NCBI GenBank assembly: GCA_049511995.1
Contig: JBEKXO010000009.1
Span: 2,333 to 66,332, forward strand
Source of the DNA: Terriglobales bacterium
GTDB taxonomy: Bacteria > Acidobacteriota > Terriglobia > Terriglobales > Acidobacteriaceae
Reading direction: 5' to 3'
Length of the DNA stretch: 64,000 nt
Made by a program: the position numbers and the translations under genes. The notes beneath the pieces were generated by a model, which saw nothing but the letters and a program-made list of their open reading frames with translations, did not search any database and was not told the DNA's origin. Shown one piece after another: positions 2,060 to 23,369 of the stretch (within the stretch, counting starts at the first letter, position 1; every line of letters begins with the position of its first letter).

Positions 2060-4456
2060 TTATTCAGGGCCAGTGATTTTTGGATTAGAGCTGGTTTCGT
2101 CGGAATGCTTGTCCTCTCCGTCGGTGCGGTCGGATGCCTCAGATTCAACCGTGTGAACCTGGTCGGCGATGCGGCGGGCGGGCAAGGGGCCGGCGTCGGC
2201 ATTGCGGCGCAATTCCCTGACAATGTCTGCATGGCCGGCTGCGGCATAGTCGTTTTCGAGGCGTGTGAGAGCTTCGGCGAGAATGTCATGGTGATGGAGG
2301 TTTTCGAGGCCGGGCTCGCGGGTGATATTCAGCCACAGGCGATGCAGCAGTTCGACGTCTTCATTCTTCATGGTGGGCGTGTGCGGGCCTATGCGGAAGG
2401 TGTCGACGTTGCCATTGGGCTGCACGATCTGAAGCAGGAACTGGCGCTTCGGTTCGGGGATGGCTTCCCACGCGCTGCCGAGGTTGAAGGCCTGCTCGGC
2501 GGTGGTCATTTTGCTGGAGACGCCGGAGACAACCGCTGACGACTCGAGATTGTGCGCGGTCTGGGCGATGGCTGACCAGGGATCGCGGGCCGGAACGACC
2601 AAGAGAGAAATCTTCTTGCCGAAGCTTTCGGCTACCGAGACGGCGCGGGTGAAGAGCGTCTGCTCGTAATCGCTGAAGACCTGCTCGGTGGAGAGTCCGT
2701 AGGCAGCGGTGCCGAACTGGCTGATGCGGGCGCTCATGACTACGACATCCTGCGCCCGCGTATCGATGCGATCGAGCGCCCACTTAAGGTGATTCAGCGT
2801 GTTGTAGTCGCGGACGGGAACCAGCACGTTGTTGGTGCGGATTCCGACGGTTTCGCGCTGCACGCTTTCTGCCTGCTGCAGTTGGAACTGCTCTTTCATT
2901 TGCGCCGCGCTGTGCGCGTGTTTGCGGCGATTCACTTTCTCGGAGAAGGTGAAGATGGCGAAAAAGATGATGGAGAAAATGATTCCGCTTACTGTGGCCA
3001 CCGACTTGGTGAAGAGATTGACGATGGCGGTCGAGAGCAGCACCATGCCGACCGAGGCCAGTCCGATGGGAATTTCGACGCCGAAGATATGAAGGTTGGG
3101 CGGAACCTTCCAATTGCGCTCGCCTTTATAGCGATAGCGTAAAACCAGCATCGAGATAGTTTTGAAGACGAAGCTCCAGACCACGCCGAAAGCGTAGGCC
3201 TCGCCGAGGGTGTAGATGTTGCCCCAGCTGACGATGATGGTGAAGAGTTGCAATCCGACAATGAGGTTGATGATGCGATAGGTGGTGCCGTAGCGCTTGT
3301 GCGGGCGGCGGAACCAGTCGGCGAGTACGCCATCTTCGCTGACGCGATTGAGGACGCCGTTGGAGCCGACGATGGCGGTGTTGACGGCGCCGGAAAGGAT
3401 GAGGAATCCGACGACGACGACGAAGGCACGGAAGGCGAGGCGCACGACTTCGGGGCCGACCATGTACATGGCCAAGCCGGCGATGAGGTTGTCGCTGTAT
3501 ACCTTCACGCGGACGTCGTCGGGGATGAGCATGACCGCGAGCAACGAGACGAGCCCGGTGAAGACGAAGCTGTAAACGCCGATAACGATGGCGGTGCGTT
3601 TCAGGTTTTTCAGCTTGGGGTGCGCCAGTTCGCGATAGACCTGGGCGAGCGATTCTTCACCGCTCATGGCGAGGACCGAGTGACCGAAGCCGATGATCAG
3701 CCCGAGGATGCCGAACATGTGCGGCAGCTTGCTGTGCTTCCAGAAGCCGAGCGATTCTTCGCTGTAGTGAATGTTGGCGAGAGTCGGGAAGGGCGGCAGG
3801 TGGCCGCCGACTTTGAGCAGCGTGAATAACGACCAGCCGATCAGCATGACGACCATGACGGTCGTGATCTGCATGACCCAGAGCGCCTTTTCGCTGGACT
3901 CTTCGATGCCTTTGATGTTCTCCCACCAAAAATAGAGAGTGACGGCAACGGCGAACACGACGGCCGTGAAGTTGACGCCGACCTGCGGCGTGCCGCCGAA
4001 GAGACGATGAACGGCGGAGGGAATCCAGCCGTGGGCGTCGGCGATGGCGATGGTGTCGTTGATCAGGCCGGCGATGTACTGTCCCGCGGAAACTCCGGAG
4101 ACGGGGCCGGTCAGGATGTAATCGAACATCAGGGCGGAGACGCTGAGCTTGGCGAGGGTGCCTCCGAGAGCTTCTTTGACGACGCGGTAGACGCCGCCGC
4201 GCACGAACATCGAGCAGCTCTCGACATAGACGGCGCGGACGGCGAACGCGAACAGCATCACGCCCAGAACAAACCAGGGGGCGCTTTTGCCGATGGCTTG
4301 TTCGGCGATGCCTCCGGCGTAGAAAGCGGAAGAGCCAAGATCATTGAGAATGACGGCGGCGGCTCGCCAGTAGGAGATAAAGGTGAGCATGACCGAGGTT
4401 GCGACTACAATCCGAACCCGGTTATTGCCGGTTGGAGCGTTGGAGGTCGATGACAT
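2060..4456 (-). CDS. APC-superfamily amino-acid/polyamine permease with a long cytoplasmic C-terminal domain
   Basis: The 798-aa ORF has about 12 hydrophobic segments in its first 500 or so residues. These are followed by a soluble tail of about 280 aa that looks USP-like. Confidence 0.8.
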   Translation of the reverse strand: MSSTSNAPTGNNRVRIVVATSVMLTFISYWRAAAVILNDLGSSAFYAGGIAEQAIGKSAPWFVLGVMLFAFAVRAVYVESCSMFVRGGVYRVVKEALGGTLAKLSVSALMFDYILTGPVSGVSAGQYIAGLINDTIAIADAHGWIPSAVHRLFGGTPQVGVNFTAVVFAVAVTLYFWWENIKGIEESSEKALWVMQITTVMVVMLIGWSLFTLLKVGGHLPPFPTLANIHYSEESLGFWKHSKLPHMFGILGLIIGFGHSVLAMSGEESLAQVYRELAHPKLKNLKRTAIVIGVYSFVFTGLVSLLAVMLIPDDVRVKVYSDNLIAGLAMYMVGPEVVRLAFRAFVVVVGFLILSGAVNTAIVGSNGVLNRVSEDGVLADWFRRPHKRYGTTYRIINLIVGLQLFTIIVSWGNIYTLGEAYAFGVVWSFVFKTISMLVLRYRYKGERNWKVPPNLHIFGVEIPIGLASVGMVLLSTAIVNLFTKSVATVSGIIFSIIFFAIFTFSEKVNRRKHAHSAAQMKEQFQLQQAESVQRETVGIRTNNVLVPVRDYNTLNHLKWALDRIDTRAQDVVVMSARISQFGTAAYGLSTEQVFSDYEQTLFTRAVSVAESFGKKISLLVVPARDPWSAIAQTAHNLESSAVVSGVSSKMTTAEQAFNLGSAWEAIPEPKRQFLLQIVQPNGNVDTFRIGPHTPTMKNEDVELLHRLWLNITREPGLENLHHHDILAEALTRLENDYAAAGHADIVRELRRNADAGPLPARRIADQVHTVESEASDRTDGEDKHSDETSSNPKITGPE

Positions 4457-19165: not shown

Positions 19166-19702
19166 GTGGCCTTTATGGCGGACAAGGATCCGTTTTTGCG
19201 GTATGGCGTTACCGCCTTCTATCACTTCACAGATAGGCGAAACCTGCCGGCGATTCAGGAGCACGGAGGACTTTATTCGCTTGCGAAACTCCGGGAGAGA
19301 AAGATCGACGTACCAGCGCCGGGAGGCAACGATTGGAGTCATCAAGCGGACGAGCGAGTGGGTCTCGATAGGTACGTGCATCTGTGTTTTCGCGCAAACC
19401 ACCCTATGCTTTTTCGGGCCATGCAGGACGCTAGGATTGCCGTGCCGATTTATCTTGAAATTCATCCCGACGTGATCAGGGTGGATGGGGTGATGTATAC
19501 GGACGACGTATCGAACAAAGCAGGCGTTGAAATTCGCACTCTAGATCGAGCGCGACAAACGGTGGACTTCGAGGTGTTATACACCCGGACGAACTGGAAA
19601 GACCCGGAGATCCAACGACGGTTGCAGCAGGTCGAAAAGTGCGAACTGCTGATCCCAGATCACATCCCCTTGGATCTAATAAGGAATTTTCCTCATGGCT
19701 GA
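19166..19702 (+). CDS. DarT-like (DUF4433-type) ADP-ribosyltransferase, putative toxin
   Basis: Motifs resemble my recollection of Thermus DarT. FYHFTDRRNLPAIQEHGGL compares with YHITHIDNL..IL..G.L. RYVHLCFRANHPML compares with DYVPFYF..RSPML. VMYTDD compares with FVFTD. EKCELLIPDHIP compares with the catalytic QAEFLV. The start is GTG 19166 or ATG 19175. Confidence 0.65.
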   Translation: MAFMADKDPFLRYGVTAFYHFTDRRNLPAIQEHGGLYSLAKLRERKIDVPAPGGNDWSHQADERVGLDRYVHLCFRANHPMLFRAMQDARIAVPIYLEIHPDVIRVDGVMYTDDVSNKAGVEIRTLDRARQTVDFEVLYTRTNWKDPEIQRRLQQVEKCELLIPDHIPLDLIRNFPHG

Positions 19703-20402
19703 AAGACCAATCTTCATCCCGGCACCCGATTCGTCTGAATTGGTTAAAGAGTTATCGATGCGGCTTGTTTGGAGTTCTGGTTTTGCACCGATTCAGAAAA
19801 AAAAGAATGTCGTTGCACTTCACGCCGCAGCTGCAAAGGCGGGATACGCCCCGCTTTTAGAAGTCTCAACCAAATCGGAAGAAAAAATTGGGCAGCGCCT
19901 GAGCGCCTTCAGCTTAAGAGTGCACAGCGACCGATTTGGGAAAATAGCTCTTGAGGCGGCTTTCCAAGGCAGCAAGGTATTCGAGCATGGCGGTCCGTAC
20001 ACGGATCTTTACACCGTTGAGGACGTCAGGGATGCCAAGCGGGACCCACGTCTAAAGGAGTCTGGCGCTCTCAGGGGATTCGAGTTCGAGAATCTGCGAT
20101 TCCCGCTTGAGCCGAAGACCGCGTTCTACGACTGGCTGTACATTGGCGCATTGTATGAGCACCGCGAATGGCTTAGAACTCATATTTTCCACTATGCGGG
20201 ATTCACCGATATCGAATTTAACCCAGAGAAGTCGATCAATTGCCAGGCCCGTTCGTGCGCATTGCTGGTGACGCTGATGAAGAAACAATGGCTTGATGAG
20301 GCTGTCGGTTCGCCAGAGGCTTTCATCGAATTGCTATCGAGGCGGGACTATCGGCCGAGTCACACTTACGCATCGCCCCAGACAGCGATGTTTCGATCCT
20401 GA
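19695..20402 (+). CDS. unknown 235-aa partner of the DarT-like gene (candidate antitoxin or reversal enzyme)
   Basis: ATG 19695 overlaps the upstream stop by 8 nt (ATGGCTGA). AAGGAA lies 8 nt upstream. I can see no macrodomain, NADAR or ARH motif. Notable strings are GFAPIQKKKNVVALHAAA, STKSEEKIGQRLSAF, FYDWLYIGALYEH and FTDIEFNPEKSINCQA. Confidence 0.7.
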   Translation: MAERPIFIPAPDSSELVKELSMRLVWSSGFAPIQKKKNVVALHAAAAKAGYAPLLEVSTKSEEKIGQRLSAFSLRVHSDRFGKIALEAAFQGSKVFEHGGPYTDLYTVEDVRDAKRDPRLKESGALRGFEFENLRFPLEPKTAFYDWLYIGALYEHREWLRTHIFHYAGFTDIEFNPEKSINCQARSCALLVTLMKKQWLDEAVGSPEAFIELLSRRDYRPSHTYASPQTAMFRS

Positions 20403-20440: not shown

Positions 20441-21907
20441 ATGAAGGCCGCTGCCAAACTGGCTCTGGACGGTGCTATTGGGCGCGGGGCAACTTATGCC
20501 GACGCGCGAATAGTTGCGATCCGCAACCGCTCGCTGACCACTAAGAATGGGCGCGTGGGCCATGCCTCGGAGTCGGAGTCGCTCGGGGTCGGCCTGCGCG
20601 TGATCGCCGATGGGGCTTGGGGATTTGCGGCCTCGGCTGACTTGAGCCGCGCCTCGGTGGAGGCAGCGGCGGCGCGGGCGGTGGAGATTGCACGCGCTTC
20701 GGCGCGGGTGAAGCGCGAGAATGTTCGGCTGGCTCCCGAACCGGCGGCGGTGGCGGAGTGGACTACGCCTTATAAGATCGATCCGTTTACTACTTCGGTC
20801 GAGCAGAATCTCGATCTGCTGCTGAAAGTCGATGAGGAGATGCGCGCAGTCGCCGGCGTCACGCTGGCTGAAACGGGCATGAACTTTCAGCGCGAAGAGT
20901 CATGGTTTCTTTCGTCTGAAGGCGCGGACATTCATCAGACAAAATATTCGACGGGCGCGGGCTATACGGCGTATGCGTTTGCCGGGTCCGAGATACAGAA
21001 GCGGTCATATCCGAATTCGTTTGGCGGGCAATGGCAGAATCGCGGCTACGAATTGATCGAAGAGATGCGGTTGCTCGAGAACGCTCGCCGCGTCGGGGAA
21101 GAAGCGGTTGCGCTGCATCATGCGGAGCAATGTCCGGAAGGTACGGCGACAATCATTCTGGATGGATCGCAACTGGGATTGCAGATTCATGAATCGATAG
21201 GGCATCCGATTGAGCTTGATCGCGTGCTGGGGATGGAAGCAAATTTTGCCGGGACGTCGTTTCTTACGCTCGAAAAGCTGGGCCATCTGCGCTATGGAAG
21301 CGAACTGGTGAATGTCGTGGCCGACGCGCGGCAGGAACATGGGCCGGGGCTGGGGACGTTCGCTTATGACGACGAGGGAGTGGCGGCGCAGTCGACTCCG
21401 ATTATTACGAATGGACGCTTCAGCGGATATCTGAGTTCGCGCGAGACGGCGCACACGATTGGCGCCATGCGCTCTGGCGGAACGCTGCGCGCGGAGGGAT
21501 GGAATCGGCTGCCCATGATTCGCATGACCAACGTCAGCATTTTGCCGGGGGAAAAGCGGCTGAGTTTCGAACAGATGATTGCTTCGACCGACGATGGCAT
21601 TTATATGGAGACCAACAAGTCATGGTCGATTGATGACAAGCGCTACAACTTTCAGTTTGGCTGCGAGATCGCTTGGGAGATCAAGCACGGCAAGCGCGTG
21701 CGTATGCTGAAGAATCCTTCGTACTCCGGCATTACGACGGAATTTTGGAATTCTATGGACGCAATCTGCTCGCGCGAGGAGTGGACGCTCTGGGGCACGC
21801 CGAATTGCGGCAAGGGGCAGCCGCAGCAGGTTGTGGGCACGGGGCACGGCGCTAGCCCGGCGCGCTTTCGGAATATTCGCGTCGGGTCGGCGTACAAGGG
21901 AAGCTAG
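20441..21907 (+). CDS. tldD: TldD-family metalloprotease
   Basis: It carries the HExxxH-like TldD signature (LQIHESIGHPIELD) and a C-terminal GxC...G pattern. It is paired with pmbA downstream. Confidence 0.88.
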   Translation: MKAAAKLALDGAIGRGATYADARIVAIRNRSLTTKNGRVGHASESESLGVGLRVIADGAWGFAASADLSRASVEAAAARAVEIARASARVKRENVRLAPEPAAVAEWTTPYKIDPFTTSVEQNLDLLLKVDEEMRAVAGVTLAETGMNFQREESWFLSSEGADIHQTKYSTGAGYTAYAFAGSEIQKRSYPNSFGGQWQNRGYELIEEMRLLENARRVGEEAVALHHAEQCPEGTATIILDGSQLGLQIHESIGHPIELDRVLGMEANFAGTSFLTLEKLGHLRYGSELVNVVADARQEHGPGLGTFAYDDEGVAAQSTPIITNGRFSGYLSSRETAHTIGAMRSGGTLRAEGWNRLPMIRMTNVSILPGEKRLSFEQMIASTDDGIYMETNKSWSIDDKRYNFQFGCEIAWEIKHGKRVRMLKNPSYSGITTEFWNSMDAICSREEWTLWGTPNCGKGQPQQVVGTGHGASPARFRNIRVGSAYKGS

Positions 21908-21950
21908 TTCAGAAGATGTTCACCGCCGAGACGCCGAGGAAAACAAAAAA

Positions 21951-23369
21951 ATGCTTGCGCAGGAAAAAGCCGCCGACATTTTTCACCGGATTCGCCGGCT
22001 TTCGTCCGCCGACGAGGTCGAAGCTATTTTCACCGGCTCCCGCTTTGCATTGACTCGTTTTGCCAATAACACCATTCATCAGAATGTTGAGGAAGAGAAT
22101 TCGGTGGTTTCGATCCGCACGAATTTTGGAGGGCGGACGGCGCGGTCGACGGCGAATCAGTTTGACGATGAGAGTTTGCGGCGGGCAGTAGCGGCTTCGG
22201 AGAGCCTGGCTCGCGTGCAGGAGCCCGATCCTGATTTGCTGCCCATGCCTACTCGCGAAGAAGCGGATTTTTGCGATCCGGTCGAAAAAGCAGCGGACAG
22301 GAGTGTCCGCTCCACACTTGCTTCGCGATTTTTTGAGGAGACTGCGGCCGTTACTCCGGCGGACCGGGCCGAGGTGGTGCAGGGTATCGTGGCCGTTGCT
22401 GACCGGCATGATTCAACTACCGCAGGCATTTATTCGACTTCAGAGTCGCGCGAAGGAATCTTCAACTCGCGCGGTCTGGCGCGCTGGCATCCGCAGACGC
22501 TGGCGGAGATTTCTGTCACCATGCTGGCCAGCGATTCGTCAGGCTGGCAAAAATTAAATTCTCCCGATGTGCGGACTCTCGACGGGGTGCGATTGGCAGA
22601 GACAGCGGCACAAAAGGCAGTGGATTCGGCGCATCCGCGGGAGATTGCGCCGGGGAAGTACACGGTCATTCTCGAACCGGCCGCGGTTCTCGATATTGTG
22701 GGATTTATGTTTTGGGATTACAGCGGCGTGGCGATTCTGGATCAACGTTCATTTTTGAATGACCGGATCGGGACGCAATTGTTTGGCGAAAACATCGATA
22801 TCTGTGACGACGTCGAGCATCCCTTGCAGGCGGGTTCTCGGTTCGATGGCGAAGGCATGCGGCGGCAACGGGTGCCGCTGGTTGAGAACGGAGTGGTGAA
22901 GCGCGTGGTCTATGCGCGCGCCACCGCGAAGAAGATGAAAAAATCGGAGTATGCCGGGAAGGTGGGACCGATCGAAGTCACCGGCCATGGATTTCCTCTG
23001 CCGAATGAAATGGGCGAGATGCCGATGAATATTGTCTTCGGTGCGGCGGAAAAGCCGCAGACCGTTGATCAAATGATCGCCTCCACCGAGCGCGGCGTGC
23101 TGATCACGCGGCTGTGGTACATACGCGAGGTCGATCCTTACGAGAAGATCGTGACTGGGATGACACGCGACGGAACGTTTCTGGTGGAGAATGGCAAGGT
23201 GCAGTGCGGCTTGCGAAACTTCCGCTTCAACGAAAGCCTGATTGCGATGCTGTCGAAGGTCGAAGCGATGAGTGTTCCGGTGCGCGCGTGTGGAGAGGAA
23301 TCGTTCGACATGGTGGTTCCTGGGATGAAGGTGCGGGAGTTCAATTTTACTGAGGGAACGAAGTTTTGA
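21951..23369 (+). CDS. pmbA: PmbA/TldE-family protein
   Basis: Family-typical length and C-terminal region (GVLITRLWYIREVDPY..., TRDGTFLVENGKV). I chose ATG 21951 instead of the track start 21831, which overlaps tldD by 77 nt. Confidence 0.85.
   Translation: MLAQEKAADIFHRIRRLSSADEVEAIFTGSRFALTRFANNTIHQNVEEENSVVSIRTNFGGRTARSTANQFDDESLRRAVAASESLARVQEPDPDLLPMPTREEADFCDPVEKAADRSVRSTLASRFFEETAAVTPADRAEVVQGIVAVADRHDSTTAGIYSTSESREGIFNSRGLARWHPQTLAEISVTMLASDSSGWQKLNSPDVRTLDGVRLAETAAQKAVDSAHPREIAPGKYTVILEPAAVLDIVGFMFWDYSGVAILDQRSFLNDRIGTQLFGENIDICDDVEHPLQAGSRFDGEGMRRQRVPLVENGVVKRVVYARATAKKMKKSEYAGKVGPIEVTGHGFPLPNEMGEMPMNIVFGAAEKPQTVDQMIASTERGVLITRLWYIREVDPYEKIVTGMTRDGTFLVENGKVQCGLRNFRFNESLIAMLSKVEAMSVPVRACGEESFDMVVPGMKVREFNFTEGTKF

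Follow-up and report, generated by a model that had tools for sequence, protein, structure and literature searches.

The two genes analysed here very probably form an intact DarT–NADAR toxin–antitoxin module of the DarTG1 type, carried in the genome of a member of the Terriglobales (Acidobacteriota). The locus lies within a stretch of 64,000 nucleotides (contig JBEKXO010000009.1, assembly GCA_049511995.1), which, at its full length, is referred to as the window. Both open reading frames are intact and co-directional, and they are found where the initial annotation had placed them (Table 1). As judged from sequence comparisons and a modelled fold, gene 1 is a DarT-family ADP-ribosyltransferase in which the catalytic Glu and the NAD-binding HFT motif are present. 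Gene 2, again by sequence comparison, is a DarT1-associated NADAR (BC4488-type, with a catalytic Asp) that has all of its catalytic residues. Both family matches are far beyond chance (E = 2.8e-22 to Pfam PF14487 and 6.8e-84 to PF22397, respectively), with homologues numbering from hundreds to thousands. The toxin-then-antitoxin order that had been proposed for the pair is thus confirmed as DarT followed by NADAR.

Table 1. Features of the darT–NADAR locus (positions within the window)
Feature	Position	Strand	Remarks
darT (gene 1)	19175..19702	+	175 aa; 178 aa if started at the GTG at 19166; short NADAR-linked "window-type" subclade
Shine-Dalgarno-like AAGGAA for the NADAR gene	19681..19686	+	Inside darT, at its 3′ end, with 8 nt separating it from the ATG; direct sequence reading, function inferred
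8-nt darT/NADAR overlap ATGGCTGA	19695..19702	+	From the NADAR start codon to the darT stop codon
DarT1-associated NADAR (DarG1) antitoxin (gene 2)	19695..20402	+	235 aa; predicted guanine-ADP-ribose glycohydrolase

For gene 1, the ATG at 19175 is more likely to be the initiation codon than the GTG at 19166, since every homologue starts at a matching "MA..DPF" and the identical NCBI protein has 175 aa; the residue numbers given below are those of this version. The motifs that the initial annotation had quoted as hallmarks of DarT/DUF4433 are all present, namely YHFT (residues 16–19), YVHLCF (67–72), PML (77–79), YTDD (108–111) and ELLIP (157–161). The overlap ATGGCTGA and the AAGGAA element that precedes gene 2 were also found as described, and such an overlap implies translational coupling of darT and the NADAR gene.

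The DarG antitoxin of DarTG2 systems consists of a macrodomain (PF01661) with a catalytic Lys and a C-terminal domain that binds DarT. The initial annotation had seen in gene 2 neither a macrodomain nor ARH or NADAR signatures. The first part of this statement holds, as there are no matches to the Macro, ARH or generic NADAR models of Pfam at E<=1, but the last part does not, as gene 2 matches PF22397 with 281 bits (cutoff, 27 bits), its residues 2–213 covering positions 1–211 of the 212 in the profile. This family, formerly DUF6977, is named "DarT1-associated NADAR antitoxin". Consistently, residues 1–215 match the sequence of the crystallised Geobacter lovleyi NADAR (8BAT) at E = 3.2e-55, the NADAR linked to DarT1 in E. 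coli is 49% identical to gene 2, and identity to the NADARs proven to be active on guanine-ADPr is 47–50%. An alignment of 15 sequences, including that of G. lovleyi, shows that E87, K94, K115, D172 (within TDIEFNP) and E174 of gene 2 are invariant. In the NADAR of E. coli C7, mutagenesis has shown that E88, K95 and D171 are required for the hydrolysis of guanine-ADP-ribose and that K115 is required for rescue from DarT1 (Schuller et al. 2023, PMC11543638). The DarT1-type NADARs form a divergent clade in which the Asp of TDIEFNP takes the place of the canonical Glu of YbiA. The divergence of this clade accounts for the NADAR having been missed at first. NCBI, too, still labels gene 2 a "hypothetical protein", and the NCBIfam and PADLOC models yielded no match to it either.

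Gene 1 matches PF14487 (DarT/DUF4433) over residues 19–173 with 79.8 bits, well above the gathering cutoff of 22.5 bits, and the DarT model of PADLOC at 2.3e-12. It scores 34.7 bits against the NCBIfam equivalog NF048013 (toxin_DarT), which is below the curated cutoff of 150. An AlphaFold2 model built with 22 homologues reached a mean pLDDT of 90.1 and a pTM of 0.86. When this model was compared with the PDB using Foldseek, ranks 1–8 were all occupied by DarT2 or DarT1 structures (TM 0.56–0.68). These were the only ones to reach E<=1e-3, and those that came next (pertussis toxin and Tpt1) had a TM below 0.4. The DarT2 enzymes of M. tuberculosis and Thermus (TM 0.66–0.68) were slightly ahead of E. 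coli C7 DarT1 (TM 0.65), so that gene 1 is about equally near both. Its identity to E. coli C7 DarT1 is 19%. A phmmer search of gene 1 among the PDB sequences found no DarT; it took the fold search and hhalign to show the relationship. With hhalign, gene 1 aligned with the E. coli C7 DarT1 clade with a probability of 98% (E = 2.5e-13), and the family profile of gene 1 reaches PDB 8BAQ at E = 8e-4.

The residues of the active site were compared through HMMER and hhalign alignments with C7 DarT1. In these, H17, F18 and T19 of gene 1 correspond to the residues with the same numbers in the C7 enzyme, M78 to M71, K155 to Q150 and E157 to the catalytic E152. Conservation was assessed in 78 DarT ORF matches, drawn from 80 related loci plus the window, with H17/F18/T19 and E157 covered in 70–71 of them. 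All of these residues, and M78, are kept wherever covered, the exceptions being one Tyr at H17 and three Leu at M78. The intact H-Y-E triad proposed in the initial annotation stands only in its outer positions, as H17 and E157 are conserved and the middle position lacks the Tyr; from the alignment, the middle residue is putatively Cys71 or one of its neighbours.

Other residues of C7 DarT1 have no counterpart at the aligned positions. R52, D54, M71 and N104 of the C7 enzyme have been shown to be essential by mutagenesis. In the sequence alignment, R52, D54 and N104 fall opposite E60, V62 and V112 of gene 1, and K74 and Y75 opposite R81 and A82. Hence, neither the R52/D54 relay, nor the N104 that coordinates the base, nor the K74/Y75 pair that contacts guanine is conserved by position. 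The subclade of gene 1 has, on the other hand, its own invariant residues (S55, D59, H69, R87 and N114). The basic residue found at 61 or 62 could, together with the invariant D59, replace R52/D54, and N114, which is two residues away from the position aligned with N104, is a possible stand-in for the latter.

DarTs linked to NADARs fall into two sharply separate sequence types. The C7 type, of about 200–210 aa, is found in E. coli, Vibrio, Bacillus mycoides, Lactococcus (pIL105) and Acinetobacter, whereas the type to which gene 1 belongs (the window type, of about 173–176 aa) is found in Acidobacteriota, Rhizobiales, Xanthomonas, Marinobacter and Christensenellaceae. HMM scores are about 124–325 bits within a type, as against 14–42 bits between types. 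In the protein collection searched, the window type comprises at least 664 clusters at 90% identity, compared with 89 for the C7 type, and 218 clusters at 50% identity (E<=1e-30). Its hallmarks are HFTDRRN, PGGNxWSxxAD, HPM, DVSNK and EKxE. Among them, PGGNxWS is an insertion in the NAD-binding loop, and DVSNK is the loop that reads TNAAS in the C7 type. The partner NADARs are split only mildly according to the type of toxin, with identities of 49–66% within and 44–55% between the two groups. The G. lovleyi NADAR groups with the partners of C7-type toxins; on the basis of this grouping and of the identical E152 numbering used in PMC11543638, the G. lovleyi toxin is probably of the C7 type. Both experimentally characterised DarT1 enzymes thus appear to be of the C7 type. 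Among the DarT-associated NADARs of Schuller et al. (PMC11543638) is one from Sinorhizobium fredii, and these authors show that non-cognate NADARs rescue cells from C7 DarT1; going by the affiliation of this species to the Rhizobiales, its toxin may be of the window type. The window-type subclade, delimited here independently of the DarT1/DarT2 phylogeny of LeRoux et al. (2022), is common and abundant in soil bacteria, and no experimentally studied member of it was identified.

The two genes stay together in different phyla, and as a unit they move from one genomic context to another. When one genome per species was scanned, at least 574 loci proved to encode relatives of gene 2, and linkage was examined in the closest 80. 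Co-occurrence with DarT genes, which the initial annotation had suggested as a check, was observed in 69 of these 80, where an intact darT of the gene 1 type lies directly upstream of the NADAR gene; the 69 are spread over Acidobacteriota, several classes of Pseudomonadota, Bacteroidota, Planctomycetota, Spirochaetota and Bacillota. Most of the 80 loci have the identical 8-nt overlap (end of darT at locus position 4008, start of the NADAR gene at locus position 4001), which is also seen in loci L082–L084. The remaining 11 all have an intact NADAR gene, but their toxin gene carries a frameshift, is truncated, survives only as its final 16 codons or is missing. Some of the frameshifts in the toxin may be errors in the assembly of metagenomic genomes. 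That the toxin is lost repeatedly and the antitoxin kept is the pattern of decay expected of a toxin–antitoxin pair.

Regarding mobility, the PBP or TldD genes that flank the pair in the window are absent from all 80 related loci, among which no empty site was found. Relatives with 80–82% identity adjoin toxin–antitoxin genes of the HicB, RHH and PhdYeFM families, and conjugative plasmids from Rhizobiales and Xanthomonas carry the pair too, annotated there as a "DarT ... family protein" followed by a "hypothetical protein". A homologous module on a Deinococcus plasmid adjoins BREX and HsdR-N genes. No homologue of either protein was found in the phage genomes of INPHARED. In the window itself, the cassette follows a gene for a PBP2-type transpeptidase and precedes a TldD/PmbA pair, all on the same strand and separated from it by gaps of 37–46 nt. 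Its GC content is 0.50–0.54, as against 0.57–0.63 in the flanks. A search around the cassette for direct or inverted repeats that would mark an insertion returned only short matches at chance level, and scans for sigma-70 promoters and intrinsic terminators around the pair found no consensus. The neighbourhood in the window is of the housekeeping kind, with no defence genes nearby, no defence island and no prophage or integrase island.

If the pair works like the DarTG1 systems studied in E. coli C7 and G. lovleyi, DarT would transfer ADP-ribose from NAD+ to the N2 of guanine in single-stranded DNA, which would block replication (PMC11543638, PMC11125620, PMC11825919). The co-translated NADAR would continuously hydrolyse the guanine-ADPr linkage, thereby keeping the cell viable. 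Were this balance disturbed, for instance by phage infection, ADP-ribosylation would build up on DNA, including that of the phage, and the infection would be aborted. In this scheme, specificity for guanine is taken from the antitoxin and not from the toxin, because gene 1 does not keep the base-contact and relay residues of the C7 enzyme in the positions aligned with them. Guanine-ADPr is removed by every NADAR tested to date, and thymidine-ADPr by none (PMC11125620). Similarly, given the housekeeping neighbourhood and the lack of promoter or terminator consensus, a role in defence is, for this locus, an extrapolation.

Other readings of the locus were considered. The initial annotation had proposed that gene 2 is an undescribed partner of DarT, neither macrodomain nor NADAR; the NCBI label, the silence of the NCBIfam and PADLOC models and the lack of macrodomain or ARH matches would speak for it. 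The full-length match to PF22397, the match to 8BAT, the retention of the catalytic residues and the 49% identity to the E. coli NADAR place gene 2, however, in the already described family of DarT1-associated NADARs, and the proposal is almost certainly wrong. That the locus is a decaying and non-functional remnant is highly improbable as well: although decay of the toxin is common among the relatives (about 11 of the 80 loci), both ORFs of the window are full length, align end to end with their homologues and keep all the invariant residues and the 8-nt overlap. Somewhat more weight must be given to the idea that, instead of defending against phages, the pair serves as a chromosomal regulator of growth and replication or is a selfish addiction cassette. 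The model here is the DarTG of M. tuberculosis, by which replication and transcription are tuned, and physiological roles of DarTG are documented (PMC12170906). A lone cassette, set among same-strand housekeeping genes at short distances, with no promoter or terminator consensus, no defence genes nearby and no phage-borne homologue of either protein, would fit such a role. By contrast, phage defence has been demonstrated for E. coli DarTG1, according to work cited in PMC11543638 and PMC11825919, and the Deinococcus plasmid module adjoins BREX and HsdR-N genes. Regulation and defence are, moreover, mutually compatible. We regard a purely regulatory or selfish function as rather unlikely.

A further possibility concerns the chemistry of the toxin. 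DarTs of the window type might modify another base, another sequence context or another nucleic acid, with a co-diverged NADAR that reverses the product. The low identity to C7 DarT1, the low HMM scores between types, the lack of positional conservation of the C7 contact and relay residues, the PGGNxWS insertion in the NAD loop, the slight lead of DarT2 over DarT1 in the Foldseek ranking and the mild split of the NADARs by type of toxin are all in line with this idea, as is the fact that cytidine-ADPr is also removed by some NADARs (PMC12945103). A paper on cytidine ADP-ribosylation (Toxins 2026) was set aside, as it deals with toxins of the pierisin family and not with DarT. Against a change of chemistry, the NADAR of the window has every residue that the hydrolysis of guanine-ADPr requires, the clade-specific Asp and K115 among them, and is close in sequence to NADARs proven on this substrate; thymidine-ADPr is not removed by any of the tested enzymes; and N114, as well as D59 with the basic residue at 61 or 62, could replace N104 and R52/D54. 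We consequently find a different chemistry unlikely. The related proposal that the window type is a functionally distinct third type of DarT, with a proton relay, a base-recognition loop and possibly a preference for target base or sequence that differ from those of DarT2 as well as of the C7 and G. lovleyi DarT1, is in our opinion similarly doubtful.

Under the preferred reading, that of a DarTG1-type module, the antitoxin is already known, and nothing is unusual except the toxin, whose branch of the family is common but biochemically unstudied. Of the two types of NADAR-linked DarT, only one has been the subject of biochemical work (E. coli C7 and, probably, G. lovleyi). The window-type subclade could, therefore, serve specialists to test how specificity for guanine arises on very different active-site loops. 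Additionally, since NCBI labels the antitoxins as hypothetical proteins and the models of NCBIfam and PADLOC v2 miss them, DarT–NADAR systems of this type will be under-counted in defence censuses of soil phyla.

The closest known relatives are the DarTG1 toxin–antitoxin and phage-defence systems described in E. coli C7 and Geobacter lovleyi (PMC11543638, Schuller et al. 2023, and LeRoux et al. 2022 as cited there), which likewise consist of two genes with the toxin first. Their antitoxin is also a single-domain NADAR of PF22397, 47–50% identical to gene 2 and with the same catalytic residues (E, K, K115 and D-x-E), and their toxin has the DarT fold with the HFT motif, the catalytic Met and the catalytic Glu. 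In DarT1, the middle residue of the triad is Ser63, which, as in gene 1, is not a Tyr. These modules are similarly mobile, being found on chromosomes and plasmids. They differ from the pair in the window in the length of the toxin (about 207 aa, as against about 175 aa in gene 1, which lacks the C-terminal extension) and in the spacing of the genes, which in E. coli are 3 nt apart instead of overlapping by 8 nt; the host of the window is, moreover, an acidobacterium.

The DarTG2 systems (DarT2–DarG, of Thermus, M. tuberculosis and EPEC) share with gene 1 the fold of the toxin (TM 0.66–0.68 to 7YK3 and 7OMY) and the catalytic Glu, as well as the logic of a reversible ADP-ribosylation of DNA. 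Unlike gene 2, their antitoxin is a macrodomain protein, and the Tyr in the middle position of their H-Y-E triad is missing from gene 1. Hydrolases of the NADAR superfamily also counter toxins that ADP-ribosylate DNA in two other settings, the YarT–YbiA pairs of myxobacteria, in which an ART toxin is associated with a YbiA-type NADAR (PMC11125620), and the orphan NADARs of phages (AdfN; PMC11825919). Gene 2 differs from both, as it falls within the DarT1-linked clade, outside those of YbiA and of the phages (His), and its toxin partner is a DarT.

The DarT toxins encoded beside PF22397 NADAR genes (the DarT1-associated NADAR antitoxin family) fall into two sharply distinct sequence types, one resembling E. 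coli C7 DarT1 (found at loci L085 and L087–L090) and the other resembling the toxin of the window (also found at L046, L063 and L077). C7-type toxins are approximately 205 aa long, whereas those of the window type have approximately 175 aa and, in both types, the toxins score 124–325 bits against the HMM of their own type versus 14–42 bits against that of the other. The NADAR proteins co-diverge only mildly with the type of DarT, and the G. lovleyi NADAR clusters with those that partner C7-type toxins.

Intact NADAR genes are recurrently found with a decayed darT among the relatives of the window pair. The toxin gene is frameshifted in L013, L021, L047 and L050 and truncated or fused in L002 and L030; L001 and L016 retain only its final 16 codons, and L026, L037 and L055 lack it. 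Errors in MAG assembly may account for some of the frameshifts.

A truncated darT is also found in L054, a Salinispira sp. MAG locus, as a 133-aa ORF that matches DarT only over its N-terminal ~110 residues. It lies ahead of an 897-aa ORF that joins a NADAR-DarT1 domain and an N6_N4 DNA methyltransferase domain in one reading frame; this ORF could be a true fusion or an assembly artefact.

The protein identical to the window NADAR is labelled by NCBI “hypothetical protein ABSG02_02225 [Terriglobales bacterium]”, and no model in NCBIfam release 20 or PADLOC-DB v2 matches this NADAR. Consequently, such DarT–NADAR systems will be missed or scored as incomplete with these resources.

Features of the window and of related loci
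Feature	Locus	Coordinates
NADAR antitoxin gene	window	19695-20402
First TldD/PmbA-family gene	window	20441-21907
Second TldD/PmbA-family gene	window	21831-23369
PF08713 and PhdYeFM genes	L082	4271-6705
PF08713 and PhdYeFM genes	L083	575-3009
Truncated darT and NADAR–methyltransferase ORF	L054	3640-6694
darT–NADAR locus	L091, NZ_CP026518.1	40818–44453

The genes surrounding the pair vary. In an 80%-identity relative (L082 and L083), genes for a PF08713 “DNA_alkylation” repair protein and a PhdYeFM antitoxin lie directly upstream of darT and on its strand; that a DNA-repair protein adjoins a toxin that modifies DNA may not be mere chance. On a plasmid of Deinococcus sp. NW-56 (L091), an IS3 transposase separates darT from its NADAR, which is followed by genes for an HsdR-N-domain protein and the BREX pglZ. 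This context is a defence island, unlike that of the window, where the two paralogous metallopeptidase genes that follow are the usual TldD/PmbA pair. With its listed TTG start, the second of these ORFs overlaps the first by 77 nt, and its true start is probably a downstream ATG, near the methionine of “MLAQEK”.
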